DNA of 64,000 nt from a virus (taxonomy: Duplodnaviria > Heunggongvirae > Uroviricota > Caudoviricetes). The translations under genes and the position numbers were made by a program. Of the stretch, positions 8,397 through 53,317 are shown piece by piece. The notes beneath the pieces were generated by a model. It was given only the letters and a program-made list of their open reading frames with translations, ran no database searches and was not told the DNA's origin. Location of the stretch: IMG/VR virus record IMGVR_UViG_3300046359_000179, positions 11,944 to 75,943 of that record; one strand, 5' to 3'. The first letter of the stretch is position 1, and every line of letters starts with the position of its first letter.

Positions 8397-8510
8397 TGGT
8401 AGGCCGTGTTGGACTCGAACCAACGACCAAAGGATTATTCTTCGGCTTCTTTTGTTATTATCCAACAGAATGCCTGAGTCCTCTGCTCTAACCAACTGAG
8501 CTAACGGCCC
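8397..8510 (-). tRNA. tRNA-like gene with ~37-44 nt insertion between the halves of the anticodon stem; CCA encoded
   Basis: Acceptor GGGCCGT/ACGGCCT, D-arm GCTC-AGTTGGTTA-GAGC, anticodon stem halves GAGGA...TCCTT separated by 44 nt, T-arm GTTGG-TTCGAGT-CCAAC. Confidence 0.45.
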
Positions 8511-10379: not shown

Positions 10380-10493
10380 ACTATTTTGATGTAAGCACTA
10401 ATAACGTTGTCGCTTCATTGTGCTGGGAAATATCTTTCCAAATTTGGTCATCATCGAGATTTTCAGCATTATAATTACGCGGTTCTATAAAAA
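10380..10493 (-). pseudogene. C-terminal remnant of the family-A gene disrupted by the IS (..NYNAENLDDDQIWKDISQHNEATTLLVLTSK*)
   Basis: Matches the C-terminus of ORF 6459..7064 (..YNGENIDEFFIWNNSEHKKEPTSLLVLTSQ*); no start; overlaps the tnpB stop. Confidence 0.6.
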
Positions 10494-10500
10494 TCTATAA
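10380..10500 (-). ncRNA. predicted TnpB omegaRNA (reRNA) region: scaffold overlapping the tnpB 3' end plus flank-derived guide
   Basis: Placement inferred from established IS200/605/607 TnpB biology; 300-bp non-coding stretch downstream of tnpB; not folded. Confidence 0.3.
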
Positions 10501-11710
10501 AACTCACTAAACGCTTCACAGAAGCTGCCTTTGGAAGAACTTCCTTAGGTCTTACTGCCCCTCCACGTCTGTACTCGGTTAATTCAGCCGAGGTCATGTC
10601 ATAAAGGTCCTTTACACCTTCATTTAAAATATTGATAGCCGCATTTAAGTCGCGATCATGGCTTGAGCCGCATATTGGGCATGTCCATTCTCTTATGGAT
10701 AAATCCATCGTTTCCATTTTATGGCCGCAGCAAGAACACGTCTTACTCGATGGGAACCAAGTATCTATCTTATGAAATGTGCGGCCATACCACCTACTTT
10801 TGTATTCCAGCATTGAAATAAAAGTGGACCAACTTGCATCAAGTATGGATTTTGCCAAACTATGATTCTTAACCATGTTTTTAACTTTTAGAGTTTCAGT
10901 ACAAATAACATCGTAATTTTCTATTAACCAACTCGACAGGTTATGGTAAATGAACTTGCGCTGATTTACAATATCCCTATGGATTTTCGCAACTTTGATT
11001 TTCTGTTTATTGTACCTTTTAGAACCCTTTGTTTTTCTGCTTAAATGCTGCTGTGACCGTTTTAGTTTAGATTGGTTTTCTCTGAACCATCTTGGATTGG
11101 AAATTTGCGTACCATCACTTAAGATGAGCAAGTTTTTCAATCCGAGATCAATACCGATTGAGCGACCAGTATTTTGTTTCAATTCTATTTCTTCTTCAAC
11201 TAAAATTGAAACAAAATATTGCCCACTTGGATTTTTAGAAATTGTGACAGATTTTGGTTTACCAGTAAAAGGTCTATCTATGATTACTTTTACTGGAGAC
11301 ATTTTTGGAAATTTAATAAAACCTGCTTTAATTTGTTCAAATTTTTCTAAATGCATTGAAGCCGCAGGAATCCTAAATGATTCATTGCCACCCCGCTTTT
11401 TAAATTTTGGTCTTCCCAGTTTAGCTTTACGGTTTTTAGAGAAAAATTGCTTTTTGGTTTCATCAAAATCGATTCGTTTTTGCTGCAAGGCATAACTAAT
11501 AGCATCTTTAAGCCATGGAAAGTTCTCATCATCTTTCAAAATCTTCTCATTCATTGGTCGGTTTGGGCCTTCTTTTGAAAAAGAATTAAAATTGGCAACT
11601 AACTGATTCCAAATGAAGCGAACACATCCAAAATTTTGGAGAAGAAATTTCTCTTGCTTATTATTAGGATATATTCGGTACTTAAAAGCCTTAAGAACTG
11701 TATTTGTCAT
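10475..11710 (-). CDS. tnpB: TnpB (OrfB_IS605, RuvC-like RNA-guided nuclease with C-terminal Zn ribbon)
   Basis: N-terminal KYRIYPNNKQ..FGCVRFIWNQ; RuvC motifs IGIDLGLKNL and ICTETLKVKNM; CSCCGH..CPICG zinc ribbon; ..DRDLNAAINI. Confidence 0.85.
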   Translation of the reverse strand: MTNTVLKAFKYRIYPNNKQEKFLLQNFGCVRFIWNQLVANFNSFSKEGPNRPMNEKILKDDENFPWLKDAISYALQQKRIDFDETKKQFFSKNRKAKLGRPKFKKRGGNESFRIPAASMHLEKFEQIKAGFIKFPKMSPVKVIIDRPFTGKPKSVTISKNPSGQYFVSILVEEEIELKQNTGRSIGIDLGLKNLLILSDGTQISNPRWFRENQSKLKRSQQHLSRKTKGSKRYNKQKIKVAKIHRDIVNQRKFIYHNLSSWLIENYDVICTETLKVKNMVKNHSLAKSILDASWSTFISMLEYKSRWYGRTFHKIDTWFPSSKTCSCCGHKMETMDLSIREWTCPICGSSHDRDLNAAINILNEGVKDLYDMTSAELTEYRRGGAVRPKEVLPKAASVKRLVSFIDFYRTA

Positions 11711-12303
11711 TTTTCTGAATCGTTAGCTAATTCTTGAACCAATTTTTCCGTATTCCGTTTGCTGCGGCGCTGTCCATAAATTCTTGCGCAAAAAGATGTA
11801 ATGACGGACACAAAATCCTGAACAATGTCTTCTTTATCTGACTCTACATTATTCACTACATCGATTTCAATGCCATTAGAATTTAATAGCTGTTCAATAT
11901 AATTGAAACCGAATCTAGTCAGCCGATCCTTATGTTCAACTACTAATTTAGTAAAATCCTGTTCCTTAAGAAGCTTTTCCAGTTTTGGCCTCTTATCATT
12001 TAGTCCAGATCCAAATTCTGTAACGACTTTAGCAACTTTGTAACCTCTAGCGTTACAATATGAAATCAACCTTTCGGATTGAGTCTCAAGATTAGATTTA
12101 TTTGCAGTCGAAGAAACACGACAATAAATCACTACGCGTTCTTCTTCCTTGGCCTTTATACCAAGGAATTTGTTGTAAGTTTCAATATCAACATAATTCA
12201 TTGAACCAATTTTATGAAATTGTATTTTTCCAGCCTTCTTCCAATTCCACAGCGTCATCCTGGTTACACCAAGATCTGCAGCAAATTTTTTAAGTTTAAT
12301 CAT
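11707..12303 (-). CDS. tnpA: IS607-type TnpA (serine recombinase with N-terminal MerR-like HTH)
   Basis: HTH FAADLGVTRMTLWNW; resolvase core VVIYCRVSS..NLETQ; 4-nt overlap with tnpB. Confidence 0.8.
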   Translation of the reverse strand: MIKLKKFAADLGVTRMTLWNWKKAGKIQFHKIGSMNYVDIETYNKFLGIKAKEEERVVIYCRVSSTANKSNLETQSERLISYCNARGYKVAKVVTEFGSGLNDKRPKLEKLLKEQDFTKLVVEHKDRLTRFGFNYIEQLLNSNGIEIDVVNNVESDKEDIVQDFVSVITSFCARIYGQRRSKRNTEKLVQELANDSEK

Positions 12304-12967: not shown

Positions 12968-13040
12968 CTCCCTAGCGTGGGATCGAACCACGGACAACTT
13001 GATTAACAGTCAAGCGCTCTACCGACTGAGCTACTAGAGA
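12968..13040 (-). tRNA. tRNA-Asn (anticodon GTT)
   Basis: Acceptor TCTCTAG/CTAGGGA, D-arm GCTC-AGTCGGTA-GAGC, anticodon stem CTTGA/TCAAG, loop CTGTTAA, T-arm CGTGG-TTCGATC-CCACG. Confidence 0.8.
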
Positions 13041-13048
13041 ATAAATTT

Positions 13049-13126
13049 TGGTTGCGGATGCTGGATTCGAACCAGCGACCTCTTGATTATGAGCCAAGTG
13101 AGATAACCATGCTTCTCTAATCCGCA
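13049..13126 (-). tRNA. tRNA-Met or Ile2 (anticodon CAT), CCA encoded
   Basis: Acceptor TGCGGAT/ATCCGCA, D-stem GAGA/TCTC, anticodon stem CTTGG/TCAAG, loop CTCATAA, T-arm GCTGG-TTCGAAT-CCAGC. Confidence 0.75.
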
Positions 13127-13139
13127 ACAAATTTAAAAT

Positions 13140-13214
13140 TGGCGTCCCTACCTGGAATCGAACCAGGTCCTGCAGCGTGAAAGGCTATCGATCTAACCAG
13201 TAATCTATAGGGAC
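13140..13214 (-). tRNA. tRNA-Glu (anticodon TTC), CCA encoded
   Basis: Acceptor GTCCCTA/TAGGGAC-G-CCA, D-stem GATT/GATC, loop CTTTCAC, T-arm CCTGG-TTCGATT-CCAGG; resembles E. coli tRNA-Glu layout. Confidence 0.75.
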
Positions 13215-18757: not shown

Positions 18758-19561
18758 TTAAATTGTGAAAACGTTTGATGGATGGAAGCCGTTATTTTTA
18801 AATTTTTCATTAGGGTACCCGACAGGGTTACACACTAGTTGAGTGCGCCCTATTGTCCCATTATAAGCATCATGTGTATGACCGAAAAACCAATAAGCTG
18901 GCTGATGCTTTAAAATGAAAGCATCTAAGTCGCTTGCGAATGCCCCATTTAATGGACTATCACCATATTTTGCATGGACTGCTTTGTAGGTAGGTAGGTG
19001 ATGAGTGACAATTACGGTCTTTGAATTGTCTTTGCCCTTCATTAATGTTGACAATTTTCGCTTACAACTTGCGTGCATTTTTTGTGCTGTGTCCGGAGTA
19101 AAAGCTCCACTTCCATCAAAAATATAAGCATGATCATTCATCTGAAAAGCCGCTGCGGACTTCATTTCTTCTGGGGACTTTTTGTAGTCGGTCCACATAG
19201 TGGCAGCATGAAAAGTTACTTCGTCAATGACCACAGTTTTTACTGTGTTTCCTGCAATGGTCAAATTGCTGTTTGGCAAATTAAGTTTTAAAATGCCTTC
19301 TGTTAACGAAATGTCAAAGCCATAATGTTCGTGATTTCCCAAGACATAAATGACATGTTTAAAACGTGAACAAAGGCTATCTACAAATCCGGCCAATAAG
19401 TTTGCACGTCTAGCCGTCCCAATATCACCAGCAATAATAAGGACCGTTTCATGATCTGTAGGAAGCGCAGGAATTATCCTTGCAGCCTCGCGTCGAATCT
19501 CTTCAGGATCTTTAATGAACTCTAGGTGAATATCACTTAGTTCGCGAATCAATAAAGTCAT
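18758..19561 (-). CDS. metallophosphoesterase (calcineurin-like)
   Basis: LSDIHLE, GDIG, GNHEH, GHTH motifs. Confidence 0.65.
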   Translation of the reverse strand: MTLLIRELSDIHLEFIKDPEEIRREAARIIPALPTDHETVLIIAGDIGTARRANLLAGFVDSLCSRFKHVIYVLGNHEHYGFDISLTEGILKLNLPNSNLTIAGNTVKTVVIDEVTFHAATMWTDYKKSPEEMKSAAAFQMNDHAYIFDGSGAFTPDTAQKMHASCKRKLSTLMKGKDNSKTVIVTHHLPTYKAVHAKYGDSPLNGAFASDLDAFILKHQPAYWFFGHTHDAYNGTIGRTQLVCNPVGYPNEKFKNNGFHPSNVFTI

Positions 19562-20149: not shown

Positions 20150-21469
20150 TTATTCTCCAATTGGTTCAACAAATTTATCATCACGAACATGATTATACAC
20201 TGGGAATCGCAGAGAGAAAAACTTTGCGTCTTTCGCCTTAGACATTTCTTGATAGGTAATCACCGCAGTTTGATGCTTATATTTTGAATCGAAATTCTCA
20301 GCGATATCAGCGCGAACTTCATCGCTGAAACCTGATCCGACATTACAGCGGAATTCACGACCATGCTCGTCTCGACCTTCGACTGTGATGCCACCACAAG
20401 TGCCCTGGAGACGCGACTTAGGCTTGCCTTGATACCAAGCAACGATACGCGCGTCAACATCATAAAAGCGCTTAATTTTGCACCAATCCATAGATCGGTC
20501 CCACTGATAAACAGCATCCCAGTTCTTTAGGATTAAACCCTCTTGACCATGAACATCAATGACTTCGTTGCAGTACGCGACCATATCTGCATAACTTTTG
20601 ACTTCCCGCCCATTGGTGATAAGAATCTTTTTGCAACCTGCTTCGTCAATAATTTTTGAAAGAGCTATTCGATTTTGACGCATGGTAATCTTTGTAGATT
20701 GGGCCAGCCAATCATTCAAAGGCATCAAGAAAAAAGCATGGAATCGCAAATTGCCTTTTGCAACATCATTACCTGCTTTTTTGGAATTCATGGTTTCAGT
20801 GAAGTCTGAAGCAAATGCTTCGCCGTCAAGGACAAAGTCATAACCGACATTATCACGCATCTTCTTCATGTCTTCATCAAAGATGCCTTCAAGGTGTTCA
20901 GAAATTTTTCCGCTACGAGCACGGTATTCTACAGGCTGATTGAGGCGAACAAATGCGATGGACCTGTTACCGTCCATTTTCCAATCTCCATGGGCGGGGT
21001 ACGTTACCTTCTCAAGGAACTCTTCTGGGCTATCACACTTGTCTGCAAGCATAATTTCGAATACTGGAATAATTTCCTGCTTCCATGCAGAATTAGCGGT
21101 ATCTGCAGAAAATCCTGCTTTCAAATCCTTGTCAAAAATTCGCGCAATATATTCTTGCGCATGTTCGGGAAATTTTGAAATAGATTGCGTGACTGCTGCT
21201 CGAGCCGCATCTCCAGTAATTTGACGCGTTGCAAGCTTATTAAGCACTTCAAAAAAGTCTGAATAATTTACATCAGACATCTTGACATCTTGTGCAATTG
21301 AAGGCATCTCAAACTTCTTAACGCCGAATACCTGATAGGGATCCAAAGCTGCACAAATCAATTGTTTTGCAATTTCGTCAGCTTTTTCGAGTGCTTCCTT
21401 AATCACTTTTTTGGTTCCTGAACCAGAAGCAGTTTCACACGCTTTAATAACTTCTATAAAATTACTCAT
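20150..21469 (-). CDS. ATP-dependent DNA ligase (T4 gp30-like)
   Basis: KMDGNR adenylation motif (KxDG); 439 aa. Confidence 0.75.
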   Translation of the reverse strand: MSNFIEVIKACETASGSGTKKVIKEALEKADEIAKQLICAALDPYQVFGVKKFEMPSIAQDVKMSDVNYSDFFEVLNKLATRQITGDAARAAVTQSISKFPEHAQEYIARIFDKDLKAGFSADTANSAWKQEIIPVFEIMLADKCDSPEEFLEKVTYPAHGDWKMDGNRSIAFVRLNQPVEYRARSGKISEHLEGIFDEDMKKMRDNVGYDFVLDGEAFASDFTETMNSKKAGNDVAKGNLRFHAFFLMPLNDWLAQSTKITMRQNRIALSKIIDEAGCKKILITNGREVKSYADMVAYCNEVIDVHGQEGLILKNWDAVYQWDRSMDWCKIKRFYDVDARIVAWYQGKPKSRLQGTCGGITVEGRDEHGREFRCNVGSGFSDEVRADIAENFDSKYKHQTAVITYQEMSKAKDAKFFSLRFPVYNHVRDDKFVEPIGE

Positions 21470-21567: not shown

Positions 21568-21984
21568 ATGGCTAAAAATCAAGCACCGACCTTGTGCGTT
21601 GAAGATACGGGGGAAGCATCTTACGTGTCCCTCTTGGAATATAAAAGGGAACATTATCTCTGCGTTATTGATAGGATTTCATCTGATGAAATTACGGCAT
21701 ACGTGCTAGATTATGCCGAAGCTGAAAATATACCAATTCAACAATTTCTAAGCGTAGCAAATCTTTGGTTTTATGGAGCCTCTGATGATCACCCGCTATC
21801 TGTAGAGCTCGCAGCAAAAGGCCTTACAGACGTGCTTTCGCCAATCTATAAGACCTTTGATGCTAACTATGTTTCACGTATAATTGGCACTACTTTTAAT
21901 CATGCTAATACGGAATCGAAAATAAAACGAAGAAAAGCAATTCCTGTAGTCGAAGGAACGCCAGTTCGACTTAAAAAGCGGTGA
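21568..21984 (+). CDS. hypothetical protein (plus strand)
   Basis: 138-aa ORF with AAGGAA-type RBS upstream. Confidence 0.4.
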   Translation: MAKNQAPTLCVEDTGEASYVSLLEYKREHYLCVIDRISSDEITAYVLDYAEAENIPIQQFLSVANLWFYGASDDHPLSVELAAKGLTDVLSPIYKTFDANYVSRIIGTTFNHANTESKIKRRKAIPVVEGTPVRLKKR

Positions 21985-22996
21985 GATTGTAAAGACGCTT
22001 TAGGTGTGACAACTTAAACATATTAAATTGGTCAGTCAATTCTTGAGTCTTTTCCTTCAAAACTGATTTAGCAACAGCTTCATCTACTTCTTCGAAACGG
22101 GCATCAAGATAGGCCAAAGCCCCTTCAATTGTTTCTTTTCCCTCTTTTACAGAGCGCAGATAATCAGAATTAGGTCGTGGGAATATTAGCGCTCCGGTTC
22201 TTGAAATCTCAACAATCTGTTCAACAATGCGAATTGCATGGCTCAACGCTTTCCAATCTGCATGCTGGCCCTCAAAGCTTTTAACGCGTTCCCCGTATGA
22301 ATCTAGCGTATTCAACAGTGAACTGTAAACTTGCCACCAAGTATTAGACATCAAAAACTTTGGAGAAATAACTTGAATGCCAGGAGCGGTTTCAATTCCT
22401 CCTTTAGCATTGAGAATTTCTATACGTGTGACGTTTGGAAACTTGAGGATTTTGTCAATCAGCTCAGAGGACTCAGGAGAATCAAGCCGGGCTTTACGCA
22501 TTACTTCAGTCTCTGAACCAAAGTAATCTTTGATCGTATCGACAACCTTCTTCAATGAAGTGTATCGATCATTTTTAAGGCCGTAAGCTTTCGACTGCGA
22601 GATAGCATAACCGACCATCTTCTTCACAGAATTGGTCATATAATGATCAACCATCTCCCTCATCATTTGAACTTCTGAAGGCTTAACACGTTCTGATTCG
22701 CCATTAAGAACGGCAAATGCAACTTCCAATGCGTAAGTTTGCCCGTTAAAGAAATCATCAAAAAATACCTGAAGCGGCAAGTATTCGGTTTCTGATTCCC
22801 CAGCCTGCACTTTATCGCTCTGTGAACGCCCTTCGGGCTTTTCCTTGCGATTAGTTACCTTCTTATTAAGCAGCAGATCATCAAGCTTTGGAAGAACTAC
22901 GGCCTTATAGTCATAGTCAGATTCTGGTCCGAAAGTTCCATAAAGACGAGAGCCACTAGGTACCGTAAACAGTGTCGTTTCTTTTTCAGCTTTCAT
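21971..22996 (-). CDS. Pol-beta-superfamily nucleotidyltransferase
   Basis: GSRLYGTFGPESDYDYKAVV fits the hG[GS]x(9-13)Dh[DE]h signature. Confidence 0.5.
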   Translation of the reverse strand: MKAEKETTLFTVPSGSRLYGTFGPESDYDYKAVVLPKLDDLLLNKKVTNRKEKPEGRSQSDKVQAGESETEYLPLQVFFDDFFNGQTYALEVAFAVLNGESERVKPSEVQMMREMVDHYMTNSVKKMVGYAISQSKAYGLKNDRYTSLKKVVDTIKDYFGSETEVMRKARLDSPESSELIDKILKFPNVTRIEILNAKGGIETAPGIQVISPKFLMSNTWWQVYSSLLNTLDSYGERVKSFEGQHADWKALSHAIRIVEQIVEISRTGALIFPRPNSDYLRSVKEGKETIEGALAYLDARFEEVDEAVAKSVLKEKTQELTDQFNMFKLSHLKRLYNLTAF

Positions 22997-24092
22997 TATT
23001 CATCTCCTGTCGAATGGCAGTAATCATTGCCAAACTAATTTGGCGTCCAAGTTCTTTACCAGCAAAATTTGCTACGAGGTTGATTATATCAAGATTTGAC
23101 GTGATTGAAGCGAATTTTCTCCAATCATGTGCTGAAAAAAGCAAGTTATTTTGTTGTATCGGCCAAAGTGCCGCCAAAACATTTAGGGCACAGTTTGCGT
23201 GCGTGCTAATAGCATTCGTAGAACGAGTCTTTACTAGAGCATAAACAACACCTTCTGCTGAATAGTCAGCAGAAGTAAAAATTTGCAAAGCATTTAAAGC
23301 ACCGTTAACATCATTTCCAAAAACCTTTGCTGCATTTGGCGCCATAACTGAAGAAAAAGTCGCAACTAAAATCTCACTCGTTTCCAAGTTACACTTACGT
23401 GCAGCTTCAAAATGTTTTTTCATTTCAAGAAGATGTGAACTACTTATATCCCCAAAAACATCTTTGAAAAAACGCACGTTCTGAAATACGCCAAGTTTGT
23501 AAAGAAGATCAACGAATCGGCCAAAGTCTGAACCATCGTCAAGGATGACTTTCTCAAACTCTTTTACAAATCGCTCTTTTGAAATGGTATCCATTTCACC
23601 AGATTTAACAATCTGCTTTGACAATTCCATGGTTTCATCAGCAACAGAAAATTCAGAATAGCGAGCATAAAATCTAGCAAGTCGAACAACGCGCAAAGGA
23701 TCTTCAGAAAATGCTAAAGATGTATGGCGAAGAATTTTTGCTTTGATGTCTTTCACGCCGCCATATGGATCAATGTATTCCCCGTTTACGGGGTTGAAAG
23801 CTATCGAGTTGGTTGTAAAATCCCGACGCTTAAGGTCTGATTCGATTGTGACGTTTTCAGTCTCTACAGAAAATCCTGTATGACCAACACCAGCCTTTTG
23901 CTCAGTTCTAGCCAAAGCCCATTCATCCCCTGTTTCGGGATGGAGGAACACTGGAAATGATGCCCCAACTTGCTTAAAGCCGAGTCGAATCATTTCTTCA
24001 GTCGAAGACCCGACTACGACCCAATCAACATCCTTCGGCTCGCGCCCCATGAGTTGATCGCGAACGGCGCCTCCGACTTTATAAACATCCAT
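22986..24092 (-). CDS. tRNA nucleotidyltransferase (class II CCA-adding enzyme / poly(A) polymerase family)
   Basis: N-terminal VYKVGGAVRDQLMGREPKDVDWVV head-domain signature; 368 aa. Confidence 0.7.
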   Translation of the reverse strand: MDVYKVGGAVRDQLMGREPKDVDWVVVGSSTEEMIRLGFKQVGASFPVFLHPETGDEWALARTEQKAGVGHTGFSVETENVTIESDLKRRDFTTNSIAFNPVNGEYIDPYGGVKDIKAKILRHTSLAFSEDPLRVVRLARFYARYSEFSVADETMELSKQIVKSGEMDTISKERFVKEFEKVILDDGSDFGRFVDLLYKLGVFQNVRFFKDVFGDISSSHLLEMKKHFEAARKCNLETSEILVATFSSVMAPNAAKVFGNDVNGALNALQIFTSADYSAEGVVYALVKTRSTNAISTHANCALNVLAALWPIQQNNLLFSAHDWRKFASITSNLDIINLVANFAGKELGRQISLAMITAIRQEMNNES

Positions 24093-24124
24093 TTTAATTC
24101 CTTCGACTAAAAAAATTACGCCCT

Positions 24125-24418
24125 TCAGTCTCGCATGAACTTCTTAATTTTTGCCTTTTTGCTATTTGCAGCTTCGGTAATAGTATCCCAGTTCAAATTC
24201 ATCTGTGATAGCTCAGTGTTCATAATCATGTCAGTCATGCCAACCACATCACCAAGTTCTATGACTAGGTGTTGAATATTGGATGTTCGAAACGGATCTT
24301 CTGGGTGATAGCTGTCAACCCCGAATCGCTTAATTTTCGAGATAGCTTGAATTACTTCAGCACACTCTTCTTGAAGAATGTCTAGCAGATCGATGGTTTT
24401 TTGGGAAAGTTGTTTCAT
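24125..24418 (-). CDS. MazG-like nucleoside triphosphate pyrophosphohydrolase
   Basis: EExxE (LQEECAEV) and downstream ELGDVV motifs in a 97-aa protein. Confidence 0.5.
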   Translation of the reverse strand: MKQLSQKTIDLLDILQEECAEVIQAISKIKRFGVDSYHPEDPFRTSNIQHLVIELGDVVGMTDMIMNTELSQMNLNWDTITEAANSKKAKIKKFMRD

Positions 24419-24984
24419 AAAACTCCGGCTTGAATTAAAAATAGTTGAAGGACGATAACGTGAGCGTATGCAATACTGTGGGCCTTTTTAAAAGTATAAC
24501 CGTTTTCATCTTTGGCATACAACAGTGTTCTTGTTGCTATAGGATGTGCTTGATAGAGCGTTAACAGTTTCTTTTTTCCTGGTCTAATAAGCGCTAAAAC
24601 GTCTGCTAATTGTACAATACTTTTGGGCTTTATAGCATCTAGTACAGATGAATGATTTGCTAATTGAAACAATTTGGGCTGATGTTCAGGGTCTAAAAGA
24701 ATTGACCAATCCGGTTCAAGGCATAAGAGCTCCTCGATTTCCTGTCGCGATTTGAAATGCGAGTATACATTAAGATGTAAAAAGTCGATTTTCATAAAAC
24801 CGACCTGTTCGGCTTCTTCATATGGAATAGCACAGAGCTTCGTGAGATGATCAACCGGAACAGGTTGGGGGTATACTCCACAAGGATGTGGACCGAGTTT
24901 CCCATTCTTAACCATGCTTGCTTTAGTCCATCCGAAAGCCTTACTTGGGTTAAACGTGTTTACTATATCAATATCGACATCCAT
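24415..24984 (-). CDS. hypothetical protein
   Basis: 189-aa ORF. Confidence 0.45.
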   Translation of the reverse strand: MDVDIDIVNTFNPSKAFGWTKASMVKNGKLGPHPCGVYPQPVPVDHLTKLCAIPYEEAEQVGFMKIDFLHLNVYSHFKSRQEIEELLCLEPDWSILLDPEHQPKLFQLANHSSVLDAIKPKSIVQLADVLALIRPGKKKLLTLYQAHPIATRTLLYAKDENGYTFKKAHSIAYAHVIVLQLFLIQAGVL

Positions 24985-25841
24985 TAGAGCCCCATCTCTT
25001 TTGCAATATGCTTAATATTGTCAATGGCTGCTTTCTCAGTTTTAAAACGTTCTGCCCAATAAGCAGAATTTACTACCTGATTGAAAGCTTTAAGCTGTGA
25101 CATGTCCAGAGTCTTTAAAAAAGCACCAAAGCTTGTAGAACAGAATAGCAACCAAGGAGTCAACCTACGTTGTCTAATTAAAGACAAAACGGTATTCGGC
25201 CCGAGATGGGTAAAAATCTCTCGTAAATCAACCTTCTCCTTACCTGCAGTATCAATCAAATAAGAAATCGAATCTTGAACTTGATCTAGCGGATCTGAAA
25301 TTTTGTCTGACCAATCTAAGTACAGTGCATAAGCAGAATCGCGGCACCAAAGAATTGGCAAAATATTGCCTTCGACCATCAACGAAATAAATTTGTTCGG
25401 GTTGGAAATATTTGCTTTTACTACAAGTTCAGAGAAATTAATGAATGCGCGGTAATATTTGGACTCCAAGAATGCGGCAGAAGAAGGCTGACTAAATTTC
25501 TTCTGCCGCATCCATTCACGATAGAACCCATAAGCAGTTTGTCCAACAGGACTTAGCAACTCTTGAGCACGTCTACGCGGTTCGCAAAAATGCTTCATGA
25601 AGGTAGTTTCAGTGGCAAACCTTTTTGTGCAATAGTGACAATACCAGTTGCCAATTTTGCCCAAATTTATTTCCGCATCTTCTAAAGGAATCCTACGTGC
25701 TGCAATCTCTTCAGCATTAAGAATTTTAGGGACCCTTGGTGGGTTTTGCTGTGACTGTTTCACCTTTCCATTTCCATCCCGGTTTAGTAGGTTCTCCGAA
25801 TCCACGGAAGAATCTGATAAAATTTCTAATGACATGTTCAT
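24984..25841 (-). CDS. hypothetical protein with C2H2-like zinc finger (CHYCTKRFATETTFMKHF)
   Basis: Start uncertain; overlaps ORF 25726..26367. Confidence 0.4.
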   Translation of the reverse strand: MNMSLEILSDSSVDSENLLNRDGNGKVKQSQQNPPRVPKILNAEEIAARRIPLEDAEINLGKIGNWYCHYCTKRFATETTFMKHFCEPRRRAQELLSPVGQTAYGFYREWMRQKKFSQPSSAAFLESKYYRAFINFSELVVKANISNPNKFISLMVEGNILPILWCRDSAYALYLDWSDKISDPLDQVQDSISYLIDTAGKEKVDLREIFTHLGPNTVLSLIRQRRLTPWLLFCSTSFGAFLKTLDMSQLKAFNQVVNSAYWAERFKTEKAAIDNIKHIAKEMGL

Positions 25842-33827: not shown

Positions 33828-34631
33828 TCAAATTGATAGAAAGGGTATAGGAAACATCGAAGTGAGTCGCAAAGCCGAACAATCTGGAAGATACCCAATA
33901 TCAAGTTCTGAAATTACTGAACGCTTAATAATCGGTGCATGATCCGGCCGATGCTTCTCTGGTATTTTAGAAAGTTGTTCCCGAGAAAGTCTCGAAATAA
34001 CATGTTGCCGTTTTACAAACGTGCCAGATTTAAAATGTAACGGTTCTAAATGCCATGGTTTCCCAATTTCCTGAAGCATGCGTTTTTTCTCTTCGCTGCA
34101 AACACCGTGAAGCTGCTTACTTGAAAAGTGCGCTTGCGCTGCCATAGAAATGCTGTTCTTAATAGCGTCATTCTGTCGCCACAGGAAGTTTAGATATACA
34201 TCTTTTGGCACGACATTCCAAACGCGCGCATCAAAAACGGGAATAGCATCAGCTTTTTCCGGAATGCGTTTACCCAATTCCTTTGCAAAATATGCGCTCG
34301 CCATTCCAGCCATCACAGAACAAAGCTTTTGGTACTTTCCATCGTACCAGTATTGGCGAGTTTCAGTTTGGTCGTTAAACCAATACAAACTGATTTCATC
34401 TGACTGTGTATATCCAAGTTCAGCATTTGTCTTTTCAACCAAATATTTGGTCGTATCAATCATAAGTCGGCTAAGGCGCAAATCATATGGTCGCTTCAAG
34501 CCTTTGGTAAATGTGTGAAACGCTTTGCCATCAAGGCGACACATCAACGGAAGCGTGGCATCACATTTTCTACCGGCTTCTGCCTGTTCATCAGATTTCA
34601 AACGATCACCAAGTTTATCTTCTTTGTTCAT
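33828..34631 (-). CDS. Thg1-like protein (tRNA-His guanylyltransferase family 3'-5' nucleotidyltransferase, TLP)
   Basis: RLDGKAFHTF (D29-region) and YTQSDEISLY (catalytic SDE) motifs characteristic of Thg1/TLP. Confidence 0.65.
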   Translation of the reverse strand: MNKEDKLGDRLKSDEQAEAGRKCDATLPLMCRLDGKAFHTFTKGLKRPYDLRLSRLMIDTTKYLVEKTNAELGYTQSDEISLYWFNDQTETRQYWYDGKYQKLCSVMAGMASAYFAKELGKRIPEKADAIPVFDARVWNVVPKDVYLNFLWRQNDAIKNSISMAAQAHFSSKQLHGVCSEEKKRMLQEIGKPWHLEPLHFKSGTFVKRQHVISRLSREQLSKIPEKHRPDHAPIIKRSVISELDIGYLPDCSALRLTSMFPIPFLSI

Positions 34632-39759: not shown

Positions 39760-40935
39760 TTACCAAGGACCGGTTATATCAAAGAATACTACACCTGCAG
39801 ATACTGTTTGCGCAGATCCGCCGCATTTTACGGCCAACAATTGACGGCCAGCTAAGTCTCCAGATCCTTCAATTATGTTGTTTCTTGTAAAAGATGCATG
39901 ACAGTTTTGTGGCGTTACATACATTCCTCTTGTCGTCCCGCGATAACAAATATTGATTTCGCCGACATTTTTTCTTGAAAGCATCAAACCATTGTTTGGA
40001 CCATTTGGGTAAGTGGTTACTGTACCATATCCGCCTCCTGATGCGATGTTTGCATTGACTACATAGGTTTCTGGCGAGTGAAACCCAGCAATCGGTCCAC
40101 CTATTCCGGTGAAAGAGCGGGGGAAATAACTTCTGGACCCCGTTCCAGCTGCGCAATATTCCAAAGATGCGTTGTTCGTGGTCGTTGCAGCAGCATCAGT
40201 TGATATGGGACAATTTAAAAAGGCGCCATAAGCATCAGCAGTTTTATAACTTGAAAAATCCCCAAATCCCCAAATGCTACCGGCAAGACTGTTTGCATTT
40301 GCTGTACCGGTATTGAAATAAACGGTCCTATCATCGGCAATTACTGTCCATGATTTAGCTGCCGAAGTCGCAGCGTTACTCTTTGGCCAGAAACCGCCAC
40401 CGGAGATTTGTGATGCATCGGGGAACACGCCAGTACCTGTATCAACGTCGCCCATAACTTCATAGCCAACAACCCGAGCATCAACGCCTACGCTATCATC
40501 AACTCGCAAAAACATTCGAGTGCCACCGGAAGTAACAGGTGCACGATAAACAGCTTTGTTGGTTCCCGTGAATGTTTTAGCCCAACCTGATGGTGCAAGT
40601 TTCACGGTGATCGAACCCGTTGCTGCACCGTCTGCAACCCCGGTGGCAAGGAAGGTTACGGTCGTTGCTGAACGAGTCAAAACACGTTTACGACCATTCA
40701 GACCGACAGGCGTTGCGCCATCCACAAGAACGATCTGGCTCAGGTCAAACACATGTGCCAGAGGGGTTGTGACCGTCGCAATGCCTGAAGCAACTGTGAT
40801 GGCGGCGGTTTGTGAACCCCAACCGTCAACAAGACAGCCGTCAAGAACCGAGATGAGGCTTCCAGCTAAACCAGTTAGAACTGGAGATCCGGCCTGAAGA
40901 TTGTGGAAATAATTAGGAGAAGCGGTAGTTAGCAT
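39760..40935 (-). CDS. fibre-like structural protein
   Basis: Gly/Thr/Ala-rich, 391 aa. Confidence 0.45.
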   Translation of the reverse strand: MLTTASPNYFHNLQAGSPVLTGLAGSLISVLDGCLVDGWGSQTAAITVASGIATVTTPLAHVFDLSQIVLVDGATPVGLNGRKRVLTRSATTVTFLATGVADGAATGSITVKLAPSGWAKTFTGTNKAVYRAPVTSGGTRMFLRVDDSVGVDARVVGYEVMGDVDTGTGVFPDASQISGGGFWPKSNAATSAAKSWTVIADDRTVYFNTGTANANSLAGSIWGFGDFSSYKTADAYGAFLNCPISTDAAATTTNNASLEYCAAGTGSRSYFPRSFTGIGGPIAGFHSPETYVVNANIASGGGYGTVTTYPNGPNNGLMLSRKNVGEINICYRGTTRGMYVTPQNCHASFTRNNIIEGSGDLAGRQLLAVKCGGSAQTVSAGVVFFDITGPW

Positions 40936-41085
40936 AGGTTTCCTTAGATTTGATTTTCAAAGACGAGGTCTGTGGTTGTTAATGAAGCCAGTTGTTCGAA
41001 GACAAGTTCATTTCCTGAAAGTGGCGCAGGCTGTTGAGCGCTTTCATACATTAAACAGATGAGTAAAATTCGAAGCGGTAACATT

Positions 41086-44000
41086 TTAGCTCCCGGTTAC
41101 GGTATACCCAAAAGCTGTACTTGTTCTTCGCACTATAGCAAACATCGGGTTGGTTGTAGAAGCGCGAGTCAGGGTCGTAGTCGCACCGTTCAAGGTGACT
41201 GAACCAGCAACCGCAACAGAAGTAGTTCCTGCTGTCACCATGACAGCGCAACCAAATTGGGCAGGTAAGGCTTCTGGTACCGTCAAGACTACGCCATCCG
41301 CAGTGATTTCAAGAATGTCGCCATCATCAGCTGCGGTCAAAGCTCTTGACACCGAAACCAAAGTAACGTTTGTCACTGGTAAATTGTCAAGCCTGTCATT
41401 GATAGTAATAATGTCAGCTGAAGCAATCGCGGCAGAACCTTCTACTACCCCAACACGTGTCGTGAGCGCAGTAAGATCATCTACGATAAGGTCACGAGTA
41501 TCATCAACATACGTAATGGTATTTGCATCAGCTAATTGCAAACTTGCTTGAGTTGTTGCAACTAAAGTATTCACAGCAGTAAATCGCGTGTCAATTTGAC
41601 TCTGCATTGAAATAAATGCTGCATCAGTAGTAGCTTGACTTGCGCGAGTAGTATCAGTCGGGTGGACGTGATCGCCTCTAGCCCAAGTAACCCCAACACC
41701 CGGTAAAGCGGTTCCATCTTGCAGGGGAAGCGTATCGGATGCTAAAGCCTCTGTAGATGAGACTGAGCCGAATTGAACCAGAAATGTAGCTTTAAGACCG
41801 ATTAGGTTCCCAGCGCCAATATTCAAAACCGAGATAACGATCAGGTCATCTGGCTGTAATGAAGAAATCTGAAGATCGGCAGAAAGTTTCTTAGCTGAAA
41901 AAGTTCCTGATACTATAGTTGCCGGAACTCCGCCGACAAATAAGTTGGATCCGTTAACAGTGATGCCAATGGTCGCATCTGCTGTGAGTGCTGAAGAAGT
42001 TGCAATGTTAATTTGAACTTCTTGTAGCACTCCAGCTCGAGGCATTCTGAAATTAACACGTTCACCTATTGCAGCGATTGGCGTAGTTTCATCTGAACCA
42101 GCAACAATGATAGGAACAACCAATGCGCCACCTGCAGAACCAAGTGCTGCCAACGCTGCGCTTAAGCCGGTCACTTCAGAAATCGCGTGCGCATGAACAG
42201 CATCCGCTTTGGCAGCTAGCGCTGTCGTTACAGTTGCAGAATCAGCTTTGTCAGCAAGTGCAGTGGTCAAACCAGTGACTTCAGAGATTGCATGCACATG
42301 GACCACATCTGCTTTATCTGCAAGGGCATCTGTTAGCCCTGTTACTCCAGCTATAGTATGCACATGAACTGCATCTGCCTTGTCAGCTAGGGCGTCTACT
42401 AAACCAGTGACGCCAGAGATTGCATGTGCATGGACAATATCCGCTTTATCTGCAAGTGCAGTAGTCAAACCGGTGACCTCAGAGATAGCATGGGCATGAA
42501 CCACATCTGCTTTGGTAGCTAAAGCTGTCACTACATCAGCTGTGCTGGCTTTATCTGCAAGTGCAGCGGTTAAGCCTGTCACTTCAGAGATTGCATGTGC
42601 ATGGACGACATCGGCCTTATCTGCCAAGGCGTCAGTTAAACCAGTGACACCAGAGATGGCATGCACGTGTGCTACATCTGCCTTACCGACTAAGGCGGTA
42701 GATAAACCAGCAACATCGGTAATAACGTGACCATGACCGACATCAGATTTCGTTGCTAAGGAAGCAGTGACTGTTGCACTATCCGCTTTGGCAGTTATTT
42801 CTGTTTGGAGCGCCGTTACATTGCCCACTACAGTTGTCAACCCTGCAACATCAGTGATAACATGGGAATGAGCCATGTCTGCTTTACCGGCTAACGCAGT
42901 AGATAGCCCAGAAACGTTTGTGATTGCATGGACATGTGTAACATCAGCTTTACTTGCTAAAGAACCTTCAAGTGAAGAAATTCTAAGCATATCAGCTGCA
43001 TGCATATAACCATCTTCACCAATGGTGGCTCGTGGCATTGAAATGGTTTTGATCGCAGTCCCAGTAATCTGAAGCGGAACTTCAGAATTCAAAGTGAAAC
43101 TAGATCCACCGCCGCTATCTGAAACAATTGGGGCAACTACATCAGTTTCCCAATCAAATGTGAGCATAATACTATTAGTCGCGCAAATTACGCCAACGCG
43201 AACATGCTTATAGCCAGCAGGCTTTTGCGTGGTTGCTTGTCCGCTAGCATCACAGTAAATTGAACGGCCGATTTGATTTACTGGCCAGTTCCATGATTCA
43301 TTTACAACTTTCTTTCCCGCTGTTACTAGGGCGACTTGCGTATTAGCAACCGCGCTTGCAGTAACCATGCCTATTGGTGCACGGGTGTTATCATTTGACA
43401 GGTTTAGACCTGAAGCCTTACTAACAAGAGATGAACCTGACAAGTAGACGATATCAAAGGCTGCCAATGGAGTTGCAGCGGTTGCAACCAATTGTGAACC
43501 TTCGAACTTAACTAGAGAACCGGTGTCTACGCTTAAAATCGGGGTTTCGCTTGTTAAAAATTCGCCTGCATTAGATGTTCGTAACGCGTTTCCTAAGCCA
43601 TCTCGTAAAACATAACCAGATGAGAACCCGACGTCAGAACCGACAGCATTGATTCCGACTTGTGTTCCTATAGCTGAAGGAATTAAAATAGAACCTGAAT
43701 TTAGAGTGCCAGCAAATACGACTAGGACTGCTTCCCAAACAGAGCCATTCCATCTTTTTGTTTTATTCGCCGTGACATCAAACCATAGGGTATCAATAAG
43801 CTGGGTTGGCTCAACTGCTGATGTCACGGGAGTCCGCAAAGTAGATTTTCTTACCAAGTCTCCAGTTCTTGAATCTATTTGCCAATAAAGGTAAACCGTG
43901 CTAGTTCCAGAAAATGGACCCCAAGCATTAACAACTGAACGCGTTTCACTAATTGTATAGTTAGCAGTTCCACTGGCAATCGTTGCAAGAATTGACGCAC

Positions 44001-44091
44001 CGTTAATGACTATATCAACCCCGCCTAAATCATTTTTCTGAAGTGAATTCGTTGGAAGAGCAACTACACCTTGTCTGAATCTAATGTCCAT
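41086..44091 (-). CDS. large fibre protein with tandem HxH repeats
   Basis: ~10 repeats of KADxVHxHAISxVTGLTxALAD; 1001 aa. Confidence 0.6.
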   Translation of the reverse strand: MDIRFRQGVVALPTNSLQKNDLGGVDIVINGASILATIASGTANYTISETRSVVNAWGPFSGTSTVYLYWQIDSRTGDLVRKSTLRTPVTSAVEPTQLIDTLWFDVTANKTKRWNGSVWEAVLVVFAGTLNSGSILIPSAIGTQVGINAVGSDVGFSSGYVLRDGLGNALRTSNAGEFLTSETPILSVDTGSLVKFEGSQLVATAATPLAAFDIVYLSGSSLVSKASGLNLSNDNTRAPIGMVTASAVANTQVALVTAGKKVVNESWNWPVNQIGRSIYCDASGQATTQKPAGYKHVRVGVICATNSIMLTFDWETDVVAPIVSDSGGGSSFTLNSEVPLQITGTAIKTISMPRATIGEDGYMHAADMLRISSLEGSLASKADVTHVHAITNVSGLSTALAGKADMAHSHVITDVAGLTTVVGNVTALQTEITAKADSATVTASLATKSDVGHGHVITDVAGLSTALVGKADVAHVHAISGVTGLTDALADKADVVHAHAISEVTGLTAALADKASTADVVTALATKADVVHAHAISEVTGLTTALADKADIVHAHAISGVTGLVDALADKADAVHVHTIAGVTGLTDALADKADVVHVHAISEVTGLTTALADKADSATVTTALAAKADAVHAHAISEVTGLSAALAALGSAGGALVVPIIVAGSDETTPIAAIGERVNFRMPRAGVLQEVQINIATSSALTADATIGITVNGSNLFVGGVPATIVSGTFSAKKLSADLQISSLQPDDLIVISVLNIGAGNLIGLKATFLVQFGSVSSTEALASDTLPLQDGTALPGVGVTWARGDHVHPTDTTRASQATTDAAFISMQSQIDTRFTAVNTLVATTQASLQLADANTITYVDDTRDLIVDDLTALTTRVGVVEGSAAIASADIITINDRLDNLPVTNVTLVSVSRALTAADDGDILEITADGVVLTVPEALPAQFGCAVMVTAGTTSVAVAGSVTLNGATTTLTRASTTNPMFAIVRRTSTAFGYTVTGS
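42170..42985 (-). repeat. ~66-bp DNA tandem repeats encoding the 22-aa HxH units
   Basis: Repeated tgcatg..gtgacttcagagattgc.. units visible in the sequence. Confidence 0.6.
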
Positions 44092-44139
44092 TTTTATCCC
44101 CTAATAGGTTGAAAAGCTTTGCGTATTTATGCATGATGT

Positions 44140-46356: not shown

Positions 46357-46421
46357 TTCGGCCTTACATGTTGAGTCGCAATTTTAAACGTGTTCTCACT
46401 ACTATAGATGTTTTCAATTTA

Positions 46422-46844: not shown

Positions 46845-46874
46845 TTGGCGTTACCCCTAATAGTTTGCGACATT

Positions 46875-47768: not shown

Positions 47769-48034
47769 GATTATGCTCCTTCTTGCATTACGCAGTTATT
47801 AAAATAAATGATTGGCCAAGGAGCCAAAATGTCGTCTGTAGTTACAGTAGGCCCAAACTGAACGACGGGCCAAGGAGCCAAATCATTATCAGTTGTGACG
47901 GTAGGCCCCATCTGCACTGCGTTATAAGATTGCGTGCTTCCGACCGATACAAATGGAAATGCTTCAGCCAGCGGCTGGCCAAAACTCATGCACCTAATCA
48001 AAACATTTATTGGTAACATAAGTTTCGGCCCTAA

Positions 48035-51103: not shown

Positions 51104-51107
51104 AGAG

Positions 51108-53310: not shown

Positions 53311-53317
53311 TAGTTAT

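Follow-up and report, generated by a model that had tools for sequence, protein, structure and literature searches.

In a 64,000-nucleotide stretch of DNA from an uncultured jumbo myophage (hereafter the window), the gene for an E. coli-type class II tRNA nucleotidyltransferase is located directly upstream of, and overlaps with, a gene for a nucleotidyltransferase of the RlaP family, to which T4 NrdC.11 also belongs. The same order of the two genes recurs in related phages and in at least two unrelated lineages. We consider it likely that both enzymes, together with a Thg1-like protein encoded in the same window, form the phage's own kit for tRNA maturation and repair, assembled from families known in phages. 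Both nucleotidyltransferase families have been found in phages before, and the novelty, a mild one, lies only in how closely and how repeatedly they are paired.

Organization of the locus

The nearest isolates of the phage are Xoo-sp13, RsoM2USA and XacN1, whose DnaE-type replication genes resemble those in the window; the phage is not T4-like. A megablast search with the region as the query found nothing among GenBank phages, and the only near-identical sequence was a 7.3-kb IMG/VR fragment (L002).

The three genes of the block were found at exactly the coordinates given in the original prediction (Table 1). Because all of them are located on the minus strand, the gene order described there is inverted: the MazG-like gene, placed downstream in that description, is upstream of the CCA gene, and the gene for the 341-residue nucleotidyltransferase, placed upstream, is downstream of it. 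Transcription thus runs from the MazG-like gene through the gene for the CCA enzyme to that for the second nucleotidyltransferase.

Table 1. Positions in the window of the three-gene block, other tRNA-related features and the nearest ligase gene.
Feature	Position	Strand	Basis and remarks
tRNA gene without encoded CCA	5335..5410	-	ARAGORN; Rfam tRNA 50.6 bits; discriminator followed by CAT
Atypical 86-nt tRNA-like gene without encoded CCA	7749..7834	-	ARAGORN only, below Rfam threshold; followed by TCA
tRNA-like gene without encoded CCA	8212..8287	-	Rfam tRNA 36.8 bits; not called by ARAGORN; followed by CAA
Cluster of three tRNA genes (Asn, Met, Glu), each with encoded CCA	12968..13214	-	ARAGORN, Rfam, 3' flanks
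ATP-dependent DNA ligase	20150-21469		About 500 bp from the RlaP gene; nearest ligase in the window
RlaP-family (PF10127, T4 NrdC.11-like) Pol-beta nucleotidyltransferase, 341 aa	21971..22996	-	PF10127, phrog_388, T4 NrdC.11 homology
Class II tRNA nucleotidyltransferase, 368 aa	22986..24092	-	PF01743, phrog_2244, NF008137, motifs A-E, AF2/Foldseek
AGGAG Shine-Dalgarno sequence of the RlaP gene	23004..23008	-	Direct sequence reading; within the last CCA codons
Minimal MazG-type all-alpha NTP pyrophosphohydrolase, 97 aa	24125..24418	-	PF03819, phrog_4856, motif
Thg1-like tRNA-His guanylyltransferase (3'-5' polymerase)	33828..34631	-	PF04446 1.8e-27; phrog_4717 3.7e-73

The CCA and RlaP genes overlap by 11 nt, and an AGGAG Shine-Dalgarno sequence is positioned 7 nt ahead of the RlaP ATG at 22996; the two genes are probably translated in a coupled manner. 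The start of the MazG-like gene overlaps by 4 nt with the stop of the upstream ORF, which encodes a DnaE-finger fragment. In promoter and terminator scans no promoter- or terminator-like sites were found at the gene junctions of the three-gene block; the number of such matches in the region was at the level of shuffled sequence, and the sole minus-strand terminator-like hairpin of the block (23275-23252) sits within the CCA coding sequence. The other neighbour of the RlaP gene is a convergent ORF of 138 aa.

A class II tRNA nucleotidyltransferase without the HD motif

Sequence and predicted fold show that the 368-residue protein is an E. coli-type member of the class II tRNA nucleotidyltransferases, complete in its domains but devoid of the HD phosphohydrolase motif. 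The protein, which starts with MDVYKVGGAVRDQLMGREPKDVDWVVVG, matches PF01743 (E 3e-20) and phrog_2244 (1.6e-90), and is 54% identical to E. coli Cca across residues 1-185, comprising the head and neck. The tRNA nucleotidyltransferase head signature predicted for this ORF is borne out by motif A (GGxVRD...DxD, with the two catalytic carboxylates), which reads GGAVRDQLMGREPKDVD at residues 7-23 and in which G7, G8, R11, D21 and D23 are invariant among 43 homologues. It is followed by motif B (RRDFTTN, residues 89-95), motif C (DPYGGVKD, 108-115), motif D (the nucleotide template EDxxR...R..RF, here EDPLRVVRLARF, 130-141) and motif E (ERFVKE, 173-178), the residues of which are likewise invariant in the family alignment. 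The AF2 model (pLDDT 94.9) is all-helical from residue 126 on, and the predicted fold comprises the complete head, neck, body and tail. The body and tail regions, on which the original prediction had made its reading depend, are thus present in the model, and Foldseek aligned the model with full-length CCA- and A-adding enzymes over 380-400 columns (TM 0.6-0.68).

The HDxGK motif is absent from the protein, the alignment showing a deletion that spans the motif and the surrounding segment; there is no match to a Pfam HD domain, and the motif is missing in all 120 closest homologues (342-403 aa). Owing to this deletion, the protein is not expected to have the 2',3'-cyclic phosphodiesterase and phosphatase activities known from E. 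coli Cca. The absence of the HD half, and not divergence of the catalytic half, also explains why NCBIfam cut-offs are missed: NF008137, the model for E. coli Cca, scores 262 bits over residues 1-188 only, against an equivalog cut-off of 451. In addition to the identity of head and neck, the protein shares with E. coli Cca motifs A-E, the length of the flexible loop and an alignable extreme C-terminal tail. Its closest known systems include the short HD-less bacterial CCA forms NF009811 and NF009812, and its own family is that of the phage tRNA nucleotidyltransferases (PHROG 2244), with Aeromonas phage phiAS5 ORF0088 (36% identical over the full length), Klebsiella phage RaK2 gp031 and Asteriusvirus ph0011. 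RaK2 gp031 has been proposed to mature the phage's own tRNAs (PMC3622015). In contrast to the window, the CCA gene in these three phages has no adjoining RlaP gene; in phiAS5, which has the best full-length relative of the CCA enzyme, the gene downstream of the CCA gene was a candidate for RlaP on account of its size but is unrelated.

From its sequence, the protein is probably a complete CCA-adding enzyme; a relaxed or A-adding-only specificity would also be compatible with the sequence. Class II CCA-adding, A-adding and poly(A) enzymes are not reliably separable by motifs alone, and a poly(A) polymerase or an enzyme that adds the terminal A only has to be considered, as the best PDB sequence match is the Aquifex A-adding enzyme (E 3e-20) and the NCBIfam scores stay below the equivalog cut-offs. 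However, among characterised enzymes the complete CCA enzyme of E. coli is the most closely related one, and it was not represented among the PDB entries searched. The pcnB models reach 85 bits (TIGR01942, cut-off 305.65) and 49 bits (NF008634, cut-off 702), compared to 262 for the CCA model, and the identity with E. coli PcnB is 22%. We therefore regard this alternative as very unlikely; the comparison with poly(A) polymerases, a better fit to which the original prediction had named as a refutation, clearly favours the CCA model.

The second nucleotidyltransferase belongs to the RlaP family

The sequence comparisons identify the 341-residue protein as a member of the RlaP/T4 NrdC.11 family, and not as a class II CCA-type enzyme; no similarity to the CCA ORF is detectable. 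PF10127 matches its N-terminal ~95 residues only (30.0 bits, cut-off 23), phrog_388 matches at 4e-52, and the protein is 28% identical to T4 NrdC.11 (E 5e-25, 338 columns). It matches 1437 phage records, and precomputed PF10127 matches exist for many of its close homologues. The nucleotidyltransferase signature that had been pointed out in this ORF corresponds to G15-S16...D27-x-D29 (GS...DxD), all four residues being invariant in 34 homologues. The original remark that T4 lacks such an enzyme can apply only to the CCA enzyme, as the second nucleotidyltransferase is a homologue of T4 NrdC.11.

The name RlaP is said to go back to Burroughs and Aravind in 2016. To our knowledge T4 NrdC.11 itself is uncharacterised, and the RlaP proteins that have been characterised are distant bacterial members of the family. 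These enzymes add one or two NMP to RNA 3'-OH ends in a Mn2+-dependent manner and prefer broken tRNA, an addition demonstrated for two Pseudomonas enzymes only; they have little NTP specificity and do not act on DNA or protein (PMC12776372). T4 NrdC.11 was named as a member of the family in the same work, which reports three conserved aspartates and a PfRlaP structure with an N-terminal nucleotidyltransferase domain and a C-terminal helical domain (PMC12776372). A similar length, the GS...DxD core and the architecture of a nucleotidyltransferase domain followed by helices are common to the 341-residue protein, the P. fluorescens and P. aeruginosa RlaP enzymes and T4 NrdC.11. In its AF2 model (pLDDT 87.4), strands of the nucleotidyltransferase core at residues 8-74 are followed by long helices up to residue 335, in agreement with the PfRlaP structure as far as a comparison with its description allows (PMC12776372); an extra beta-insert at ~189-215 is a point of difference. 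Three residues that are invariant in the alignment are candidates for the third carboxylate: E71 and E91 in the nucleotidyltransferase core and D247 in the helical domain. The core candidates are thus glutamates, in contrast to the aspartates described for RlaP. [quoted passage not shown]

The neighbour that defines the context of RlaP elsewhere, an RNA ligase (in RtcB, Rnl and Pnkp/Hen1 operons), was not found at this locus. In searches with T4 Rnl1, T4 Rnl2 and phiAS5 Rnl1, neither the 64-kb window nor the 10-kb flanks of the clade relatives yielded an RNA ligase, and no RNA ligase family or polynucleotide kinase partner was identified among the window ORFs scanned or in the relatives' flanks.

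The assignment to RlaP bears on two functions proposed for the pair in the original prediction. The first is a split CCA system as in Aquifex and some other bacteria, with one enzyme for CC and another for the terminal A. Two Pol-beta superfamily nucleotidyltransferase genes are indeed located side by side and co-transcribed in the window, and the split class II enzymes of Aquifex aeolicus are likewise the products of two nucleotidyltransferase genes and able to act successively on the tRNA 3' end. The known split systems, however, consist of two class II paralogues, whereas the second enzyme of the window comes from another family, the first has the features of a complete CCA enzyme, and no second class II gene was found in the window. 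The flexible loop between motifs A and B, which Neuenfeldt and colleagues reportedly found in 2008 to be deleted in CC-adding enzymes, has its full length in the CCA ORF, with a 1-residue gap relative to the loop of E. coli Cca. CC-adding structures are the worst class II matches of this ORF, both in sequence (E ~1e-5) and in fold (Foldseek TM 0.4-0.5), and the little NTP specificity of RlaP enzymes (PMC12776372) also argues against a division of labour between CC and A. A split system can hardly be credited here.

The second proposal was a defence or anti-defence enzyme. Examples of such a role would be an enzyme that makes or mimics oligonucleotide signals, like Hailong HalB, or an MNT-type antitoxin, the family whose match the original prediction had named as a refutation. 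Apart from weak structural matches, which reflect the shared minimal nucleotidyltransferase fold only, the 341-residue protein has little in common with such enzymes: none of the three proteins matches a PADLOC defence model, Pfam assigns the nucleotidyltransferase to RlaP with no NTP_transf_2 or MNT match, and at 341 aa it is encoded without a HEPN partner gene, between the CCA gene and the convergent 138-aa ORF. RlaP enzymes are, moreover, inactive on DNA or protein (PMC12776372). A signalling, anti-defence or antitoxin role appears highly improbable to us, and we retain the assignment to RlaP.

Recurrence of the CCA-RlaP gene pair

The CCA gene is located directly upstream of the RlaP gene in 20 of the 23 informative relatives. 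A 206-aa "protein" upstream of RlaP in L008, considered as a truncated CCA enzyme, represents the C-terminal half of a CCA gene that is interrupted by scaffold Ns. At least two unrelated lineages also have the CCA gene ahead of the RlaP gene, with CCA enzymes of other subtypes and RlaP proteins that are only distantly related. In the IMG/VR contig L156, in L150, Rheinheimera phage Barba31A and Vibrio phage D181 the CCA gene is first and the RlaP gene second, as in the window, and the 10-nt overlap of the two genes in L156 resembles the one described above. The RlaP proteins of these four are only 20-25% identical to that of the window. In three of them the CCA enzyme differs as well: that of L156 has a Pfam HD-domain match and those of Barba31A and D181 keep HDxGK, unlike the HD-less enzyme of the window. 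In Barba31A and L150 a homologous protein of ~140 aa is encoded between the CCA and RlaP genes, which has no counterpart in the window. A Thg1 gene is found nearby in Vibrio phage D181 too.

The pairing is not obligatory, since an RlaP gene is missing within 10 kb of the CCA gene at 57 of 76 other viral loci. Conversely, RlaP is kept in place without a CCA gene in L012, L013, L033 and a whole sub-clade with 30-35% RlaP identity, and the backbone of p285, the DnaE fragment, RlaP and the convergent 138-aa gene is conserved with or without the CCA and MazG-like genes.

These observations would also agree with an incidental adjacency, in which the CCA and MazG-like genes are both accessories of a variable slot, flanked by the DnaE-finger fragment on one side and RlaP on the other. 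The two nucleotidyltransferases would then act independently: maturation of the phage tRNAs that lack CCA would be the only task of the CCA enzyme, and RlaP would work with RNA ligases encoded at a distance. Besides the constancy of the backbone and the scarcity of RlaP near most phage CCA genes, this possibility is in line with the corresponding slot of Xoo-sp13, which holds neither a CCA nor a MazG-like gene, and with L143, in which the CCA gene is found on the opposite side of RlaP, at a distance of ~4.6 kb. Three of the eight tRNA-like genes of the window would need CCA addition, and for the relative XacN1 three Rnl2 paralogues have been reported elsewhere in the genome (PMC7824862). Nevertheless, the same order with a tight or overlapping junction in at least two other lineages is unlikely to arise by chance in genomes of 85-350 kb, and the ribosome-binding site of RlaP is embedded in the CCA gene of the window. 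We take an incidental adjacency to be possible, though on balance doubtful.

Proposed role in tRNA maturation and repair

RlaP, the CCA-adding enzyme and Thg1 have already been described as nucleotidyltransferases of jumbo phages that restore nucleotides (PMC7824862). In the window, the Thg1-like gene is located ~10 kb from the CCA and RlaP genes and encodes a third tRNA-end enzyme of the same phage. Eight tRNA-like genes were identified in the window, three of them without an encoded CCA, and the one at 5335..5410 is a candidate substrate for CCA addition. The theme of tRNA-end maintenance in the original prediction fits the family-level evidence for both nucleotidyltransferases, the Thg1-like gene and the tRNA genes.

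As part of such a kit, the CCA enzyme would add or restore the 3'-terminal CCA on the phage tRNAs in which it is not encoded, and might also restore the tails of host and phage tRNAs trimmed during infection. RlaP, if it acts like the Pseudomonas enzymes, would extend the 3'-OH of damaged tRNAs by one or two untemplated nucleotides, replacing nucleotides lost to host ribotoxins, so that the RNA could be resealed by a ligase or extended. With the Thg1-like enzyme, these activities could keep the tRNA pool usable against host defences that target tRNA.

A joint rebuilding of tRNA tails by the CCA enzyme and RlaP is possible. In its strictest form the pair would be dedicated to the repair of acceptor ends shortened past the CCA, in two steps: once RlaP has put back on a 3'-OH the one or two nucleotides lost (the discriminator, with or without position 72), the CCA enzyme would append the three tail nucleotides, 3-5 nucleotides being replaced in total. 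RuvC-type cuts leave a 3'-OH, and therefore neither an end-healing enzyme nor an RNA ligase would be needed after such a cut. A rebuild that does without a ligase fits the lack of an RNA ligase near RlaP in the clade, but we consider a machine dedicated to this task rather unlikely.

Much of the conflict between phages and bacterial immunity is fought over transfer RNAs, the weapons being anticodon nucleases, acceptor-stem toxins and Cas12a3, which cleaves the tail. Both CCA-adding enzymes and RlaP/NrdC.11 proteins are widespread in phages, and we found no report in the literature of any phage version having been tested. The locus provides a cheap and concrete hypothesis, namely that two enzymes may act successively on one tRNA 3' end, supported by the overlap of the two genes, by their conservation as a pair in one clade of jumbo phages and by the re-invention of this pair in other clades. 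If the hypothesis is true, it would give a function to T4 NrdC.11-type proteins and reveal how phages counter the cleavage of tRNA tails; otherwise the locus exemplifies the RNA repair toolkit of jumbo phages in its ordinary form.

The MazG-like protein

The identification of the first protein of the block as an NTP pyrophosphohydrolase of the MazG type in the original prediction holds, although the downstream position given there does not. The 97-residue protein matches PF03819 marginally (24.2 bits, cut-off 22) and phrog_4856 (6e-18), and had no PDB or NCBIfam match. With MazG (PF03819) and PHROG 4856 it shares the metal-binding motif EExxE...ExxD (E17-E18-x2-E21 ... E54-x2-D57), in the form of a single minimal domain. 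As only about half of the related loci have the gene at this position, a specific functional tie to the two nucleotidyltransferases is weak. In relatives the MazG-like gene is thus optional; here it would be co-transcribed, and its product most likely acts on the nucleotide pool instead of serving the two nucleotidyltransferases as a dedicated partner.

Locus organization

The region from 21971 to 24418 consists of three tightly packed ORFs, all encoded on the minus strand (see table). The "upstream" and "downstream" of the original prediction must therefore be swapped: the MazG-like ORF precedes the CCA-type gene, and the second nucleotidyltransferase gene, assigned below to the RlaP family, follows it.

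Features of the window, with positions in the window
Feature	Position	Strand	Remarks
MazG-like ORF, 97 aa	24125-24418	minus	first of the three in transcription
CCA-type ORF, 368 aa	22986-24092	minus	second in transcription
Second nucleotidyltransferase ORF, 341 aa	21971-22996	minus	third in transcription
Terminator-like hairpin	23275-23252	minus	inside the CCA coding sequence
Convergent ORF, 138 aa	21568-21984	plus	phrog_11637; 14-nt overlap with the 3' end of the RlaP gene
DnaE-type polymerase ORFs	24415-25841	minus	seemingly split
Thg1-like tRNA-His guanylyltransferase	33828-34631
Calcineurin-like metallophosphoesterase	18758-19561	minus	near the DNA ligase, conserved in the clade; weak match to PADLOC candidate PDC-S10 (4e-8)
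Calcineurin-like metallophosphoesterase	82-960	minus	resembles a NinI-like phosphatase
tRNA, 111 nt	8400-8510	minus	CCA encoded; Rfam 57.6 bits, not called by ARAGORN
IS607-type element	10475-12303	minus	serine-recombinase TnpA (198 aa, phrog_6620) and TnpB (411 aa, phrog_506)

The MazG-like ORF begins with a 4-nt overlap with the stop of the 189-aa ORF before it, 32 nt separate the MazG-like and CCA genes, and the CCA and second nucleotidyltransferase genes overlap by 11 nt, with a ribosome-binding site (AGGAG) for the latter lying within the final codons of the former. Promoter- and terminator-like matches occur across the region at the level of shuffled sequence and none is found at a gene junction; only one terminator-like hairpin was detected on the minus strand. 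The three genes are most likely co-transcribed, and the CCA and second nucleotidyltransferase genes are probably translationally coupled. The 138-aa ORF that converges on the latter is kept in place in most relatives whose fetched locus reaches past RlaP. Xanthomonas phage Xoo-sp13, which has no RlaP, carries an opposite-strand ORF of similar size at the same position.

The 368-aa protein is a class II CCA-type enzyme

The 368-aa protein matches the Pfam class II nucleotidyltransferase head domain (E 3e-20) and the PHROGs tRNA nucleotidyltransferase family (1.6e-90). Four CCA-enzyme models rank highest in NCBIfam (219-262 bits), although the equivalog cut-offs are not reached because only residues 1-190 match. 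Over residues 1-185 the protein is 54% identical to E. coli Cca; the alignment of the flexible loop that links motifs A and B has a gap of one residue, and two more short gaps lie elsewhere. Motifs A-E are complete, and they are invariant across 43 homologues. CCA- and A-adding enzymes superpose on nearly all of the AlphaFold model (pLDDT 94.9) at TM 0.6-0.68, and the Aquifex CC-adding enzyme fits it less well (TM 0.4-0.5). The prediction of a class II CCA-type enzyme is thus borne out. With the PcnB models at only 85 and 49 bits, the CCA models far above them, the motifs complete and the fold matching over nearly the full length, the protein is not a poly(A) polymerase, nor an HD-domain protein lacking body and tail regions. 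Based on sequence and model, its activity is most likely complete CCA addition.

The segment that bears the HDxGK motif in E. coli Cca is missing from the protein, while the extreme C-terminus can still be aligned in a multiple alignment. The motif is also absent from all 120 closest homologues (342-403 aa) but is kept in the CCA enzymes of Rheinheimera phage Barba31A and Vibrio phage D181.

The 341-aa protein belongs to the RlaP family

The 341-aa protein matches PF10127 (RlaP; 30 bits against a threshold of 23) and phrog_388 (4e-52), and is 28% identical to T4 NrdC.11 (E 5e-25), which has been named as a member of this family (PMC12776372). Searches with tblastn found relatives in 1437 phage records, including that of KVP40 (nrdC.11) and many from Escherichia, Klebsiella and Shigella phages. 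Residues G15, S16, D27 and D29, as well as further acidic residues, are invariant in the family alignment. The structural model consists of a nucleotidyltransferase domain followed by a helical domain, the same layout as in RlaP of P. fluorescens (PMC12776372). A PDB search returned no RlaP structure, the nearest folds being weak matches to HalB, aminoglycoside nucleotidyltransferases and HEPN-like bundles.

Two other identities had been proposed for this protein. As the second half of a split pair of CC-adding and A-adding enzymes it would be expected to resemble the CCA-type protein, but the two share no similarity and the window contains no second class II nucleotidyltransferase gene; this reading is rejected. 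A defence nucleotidyltransferase, including one of the MNT-antitoxin family, is likewise rejected, as no PADLOC defence-system model matches and the Pfam match is to RlaP instead.

According to a December 2025 preprint, two Pseudomonas RlaPs add 1-2 NMPs to RNA 3'-OH ends, favor the broken end of cleaved tRNA and do not use DNA or protein; they can restore aminoacylation of tRNA missing one nucleotide (PMC12776372).

The source phage

Megablast of the region against GenBank phages gave no match; IMG/VR includes a 7.3-kb fragment that is 99-100% identical to it. Among the products of the window are a clamp loader, a UvsX-like recombinase, helicases, a ribonucleotide reductase, an ATP-dependent DNA ligase, tail fibre proteins and, in pieces, a DnaE-type polymerase. 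The 189-aa ORF is a DnaE-finger fragment whose closest relatives (46-50% identity) are in Xanthomonas phages Xoo-sp13 and XacN1 and Ralstonia phage RsoM2USA. Homologues of the locus occur on metagenomic contigs as long as 368 kb, and a protein identical to the CCA enzyme is encoded on a contig of at least 125 kb. From this gene content, these relatives and these contigs we conclude that the source is an uncultured jumbo myophage and not T4-like.

In this clade the DnaE-type polymerase appears to be divided among several ORFs (as at L006 1-72, a contig with a DNA_pol3_alpha ORF farther upstream of the fragment). The fragment matches phrog_11778 strongly, with a weak DNA_pol3_finger match in a homologue (locus L008), and always comes after a conserved protein of 285 aa that has a Cys-rich motif (phrog_11058). 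G+C content is 0.44-0.48 at 40001-54000, the block of tail-fibre and large structural genes, versus 0.35-0.42 elsewhere.

Conservation of the CCA-RlaP pair

We searched 80 viral loci around RlaP homologues with the proteins of the window. Close relatives (RlaP identity at least 44%, with a partial match of 36% in L047) share a backbone of the 285-aa protein, DnaE fragment, RlaP, convergent 138-aa gene, DNA ligase and metallophosphoesterase, and carry CCA immediately upstream of RlaP in 20 of 23 informative loci (absent in L012, L013 and L033). A sister sub-clade (RlaP identity 30-35%) has the same backbone and no CCA gene (0/11 loci). At the other loci, mostly T4-like and with lower RlaP identity, the backbone is missing and CCA lies within 10 kb in 2 of 41. 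Logan and ENA contigs gave the same picture. Within the clade of the window, RlaP is the stable gene and CCA the accessory one.

Starting from CCA, 19 of 76 further viral loci have RlaP within 10 kb, 16 of them from this clade. The three outside it are locus L156, in which an HD-containing CCA gene overlaps an RlaP gene (PF10127, 57 bits) by 10 nt, and locus L150 and Barba31A, in which a homologous protein of ~140 aa stands between CCA and the RlaP gene that follows. Vibrio phage D181 has CCA, RlaP and Thg1 inside 5 kb. No RlaP neighbors the CCA genes of phiAS5, Xanthomonas phage X1, Asteriusvirus ph0011 and Sinorhizobium phiN3. The pairing is recurrent, not obligatory. Different CCA subtypes and distant RlaPs make convergence probable.

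In these lineages the cassette may have a third member in the ~140-aa protein (L004 6248-6667, a Barbavirus; L150 11212-11661, an unrelated IMG/VR contig; 46% identity, no Pfam match). The RlaP gene of L150 is interrupted or followed by a GIY-YIG/NUMOD3 homing endonuclease. Denser tRNA-repair islands were seen in two other loci, with Thg1, an Rnl1-like RNA ligase and CCA inside 7 kb (L119 3921-10633) and CCA, RlaP and an Rnl1-like ligase inside 10 kb (L066 6036-15979).

A putative tRNA maturation and repair module

ARAGORN and Rfam combined identified eight tRNA-like genes in the window, five with and three without an encoded CCA. The best-supported reading of the locus is an ordinary phage module for tRNA maturation and repair, built from known families. 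The CCA enzyme would complete the phage tRNAs without encoded CCA and mend trimmed tails, RlaP would put back nucleotides lost from damaged 3'-OH ends, and Thg1 would work on tRNA 5' ends. Both enzyme families are known from the literature, as are their occurrence in phages and the repair roles proposed for them; a 2021 survey named the nucleotide-restoring nucleotidyltransferases of jumbo phages as RlaP, Thg1 and the CCA-adding enzyme (PMC7824862). Our analysis adds an HD-less phage CCA enzyme and another RlaP, and it records that an overlapping CCA-RlaP gene pair recurs.

That the two nucleotidyltransferases act in sequence on one acceptor end, as gene order and the published activities of distant homologues might suggest, appears unlikely. 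Cas12a3 was reported in January 2026 to cut 3-5 nucleotides off tRNA 3' ends, with viral countermeasures unknown according to its authors (PMC12851939); 1-2 nucleotides from RlaP and three from the CCA enzyme would match this deficit.

Neither an RNA ligase nor a polynucleotide kinase was found among the scanned ORFs of the window, and tblastn with T4 Rnl1, T4 Rnl2 and phiAS5 Rnl1 found no RNA ligase there. The ligase closest to RlaP is the ATP-dependent DNA ligase, ~500 bp beyond. The lack of an RNA ligase beside RlaP in the clade is compatible with a sequential repair of this kind that needs no ligase. A role for either metallophosphoesterase as an RNA end-healing phosphatase is speculative.

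The 111-nt tRNA has an anticodon-loop insertion of ~37-40 nt, apparently directly 3' of position 37 (loop C-U-CAG-G, insert, A), which prolongs the anticodon stem as a hairpin (MFE -40.7 kcal/mol, z -3.8) and is too short for a group I intron. The IS607-type element is inserted in the stretch that separates the phage's two clusters of tRNA genes.

The MazG-like protein scores narrowly above the Pfam threshold, contains EExxE...ExxD and has a match to a PHROG of phage NTP pyrophosphohydrolases; NCBIfam and PDB searches gave no match. Within the proposed module it would be a loosely attached nucleotide-pool enzyme. In Escherichia phage ph0011 (Asteriusvirus; L169 5001-8645) genes for a NUDIX hydrolase, a glutaredoxin, a protein with a macro domain and an aminoacyl-tRNA hydrolase of the Pth2 type come after the CCA gene, the NUDIX protein being another NTP/nucleotide hydrolase beside a phage CCA gene.
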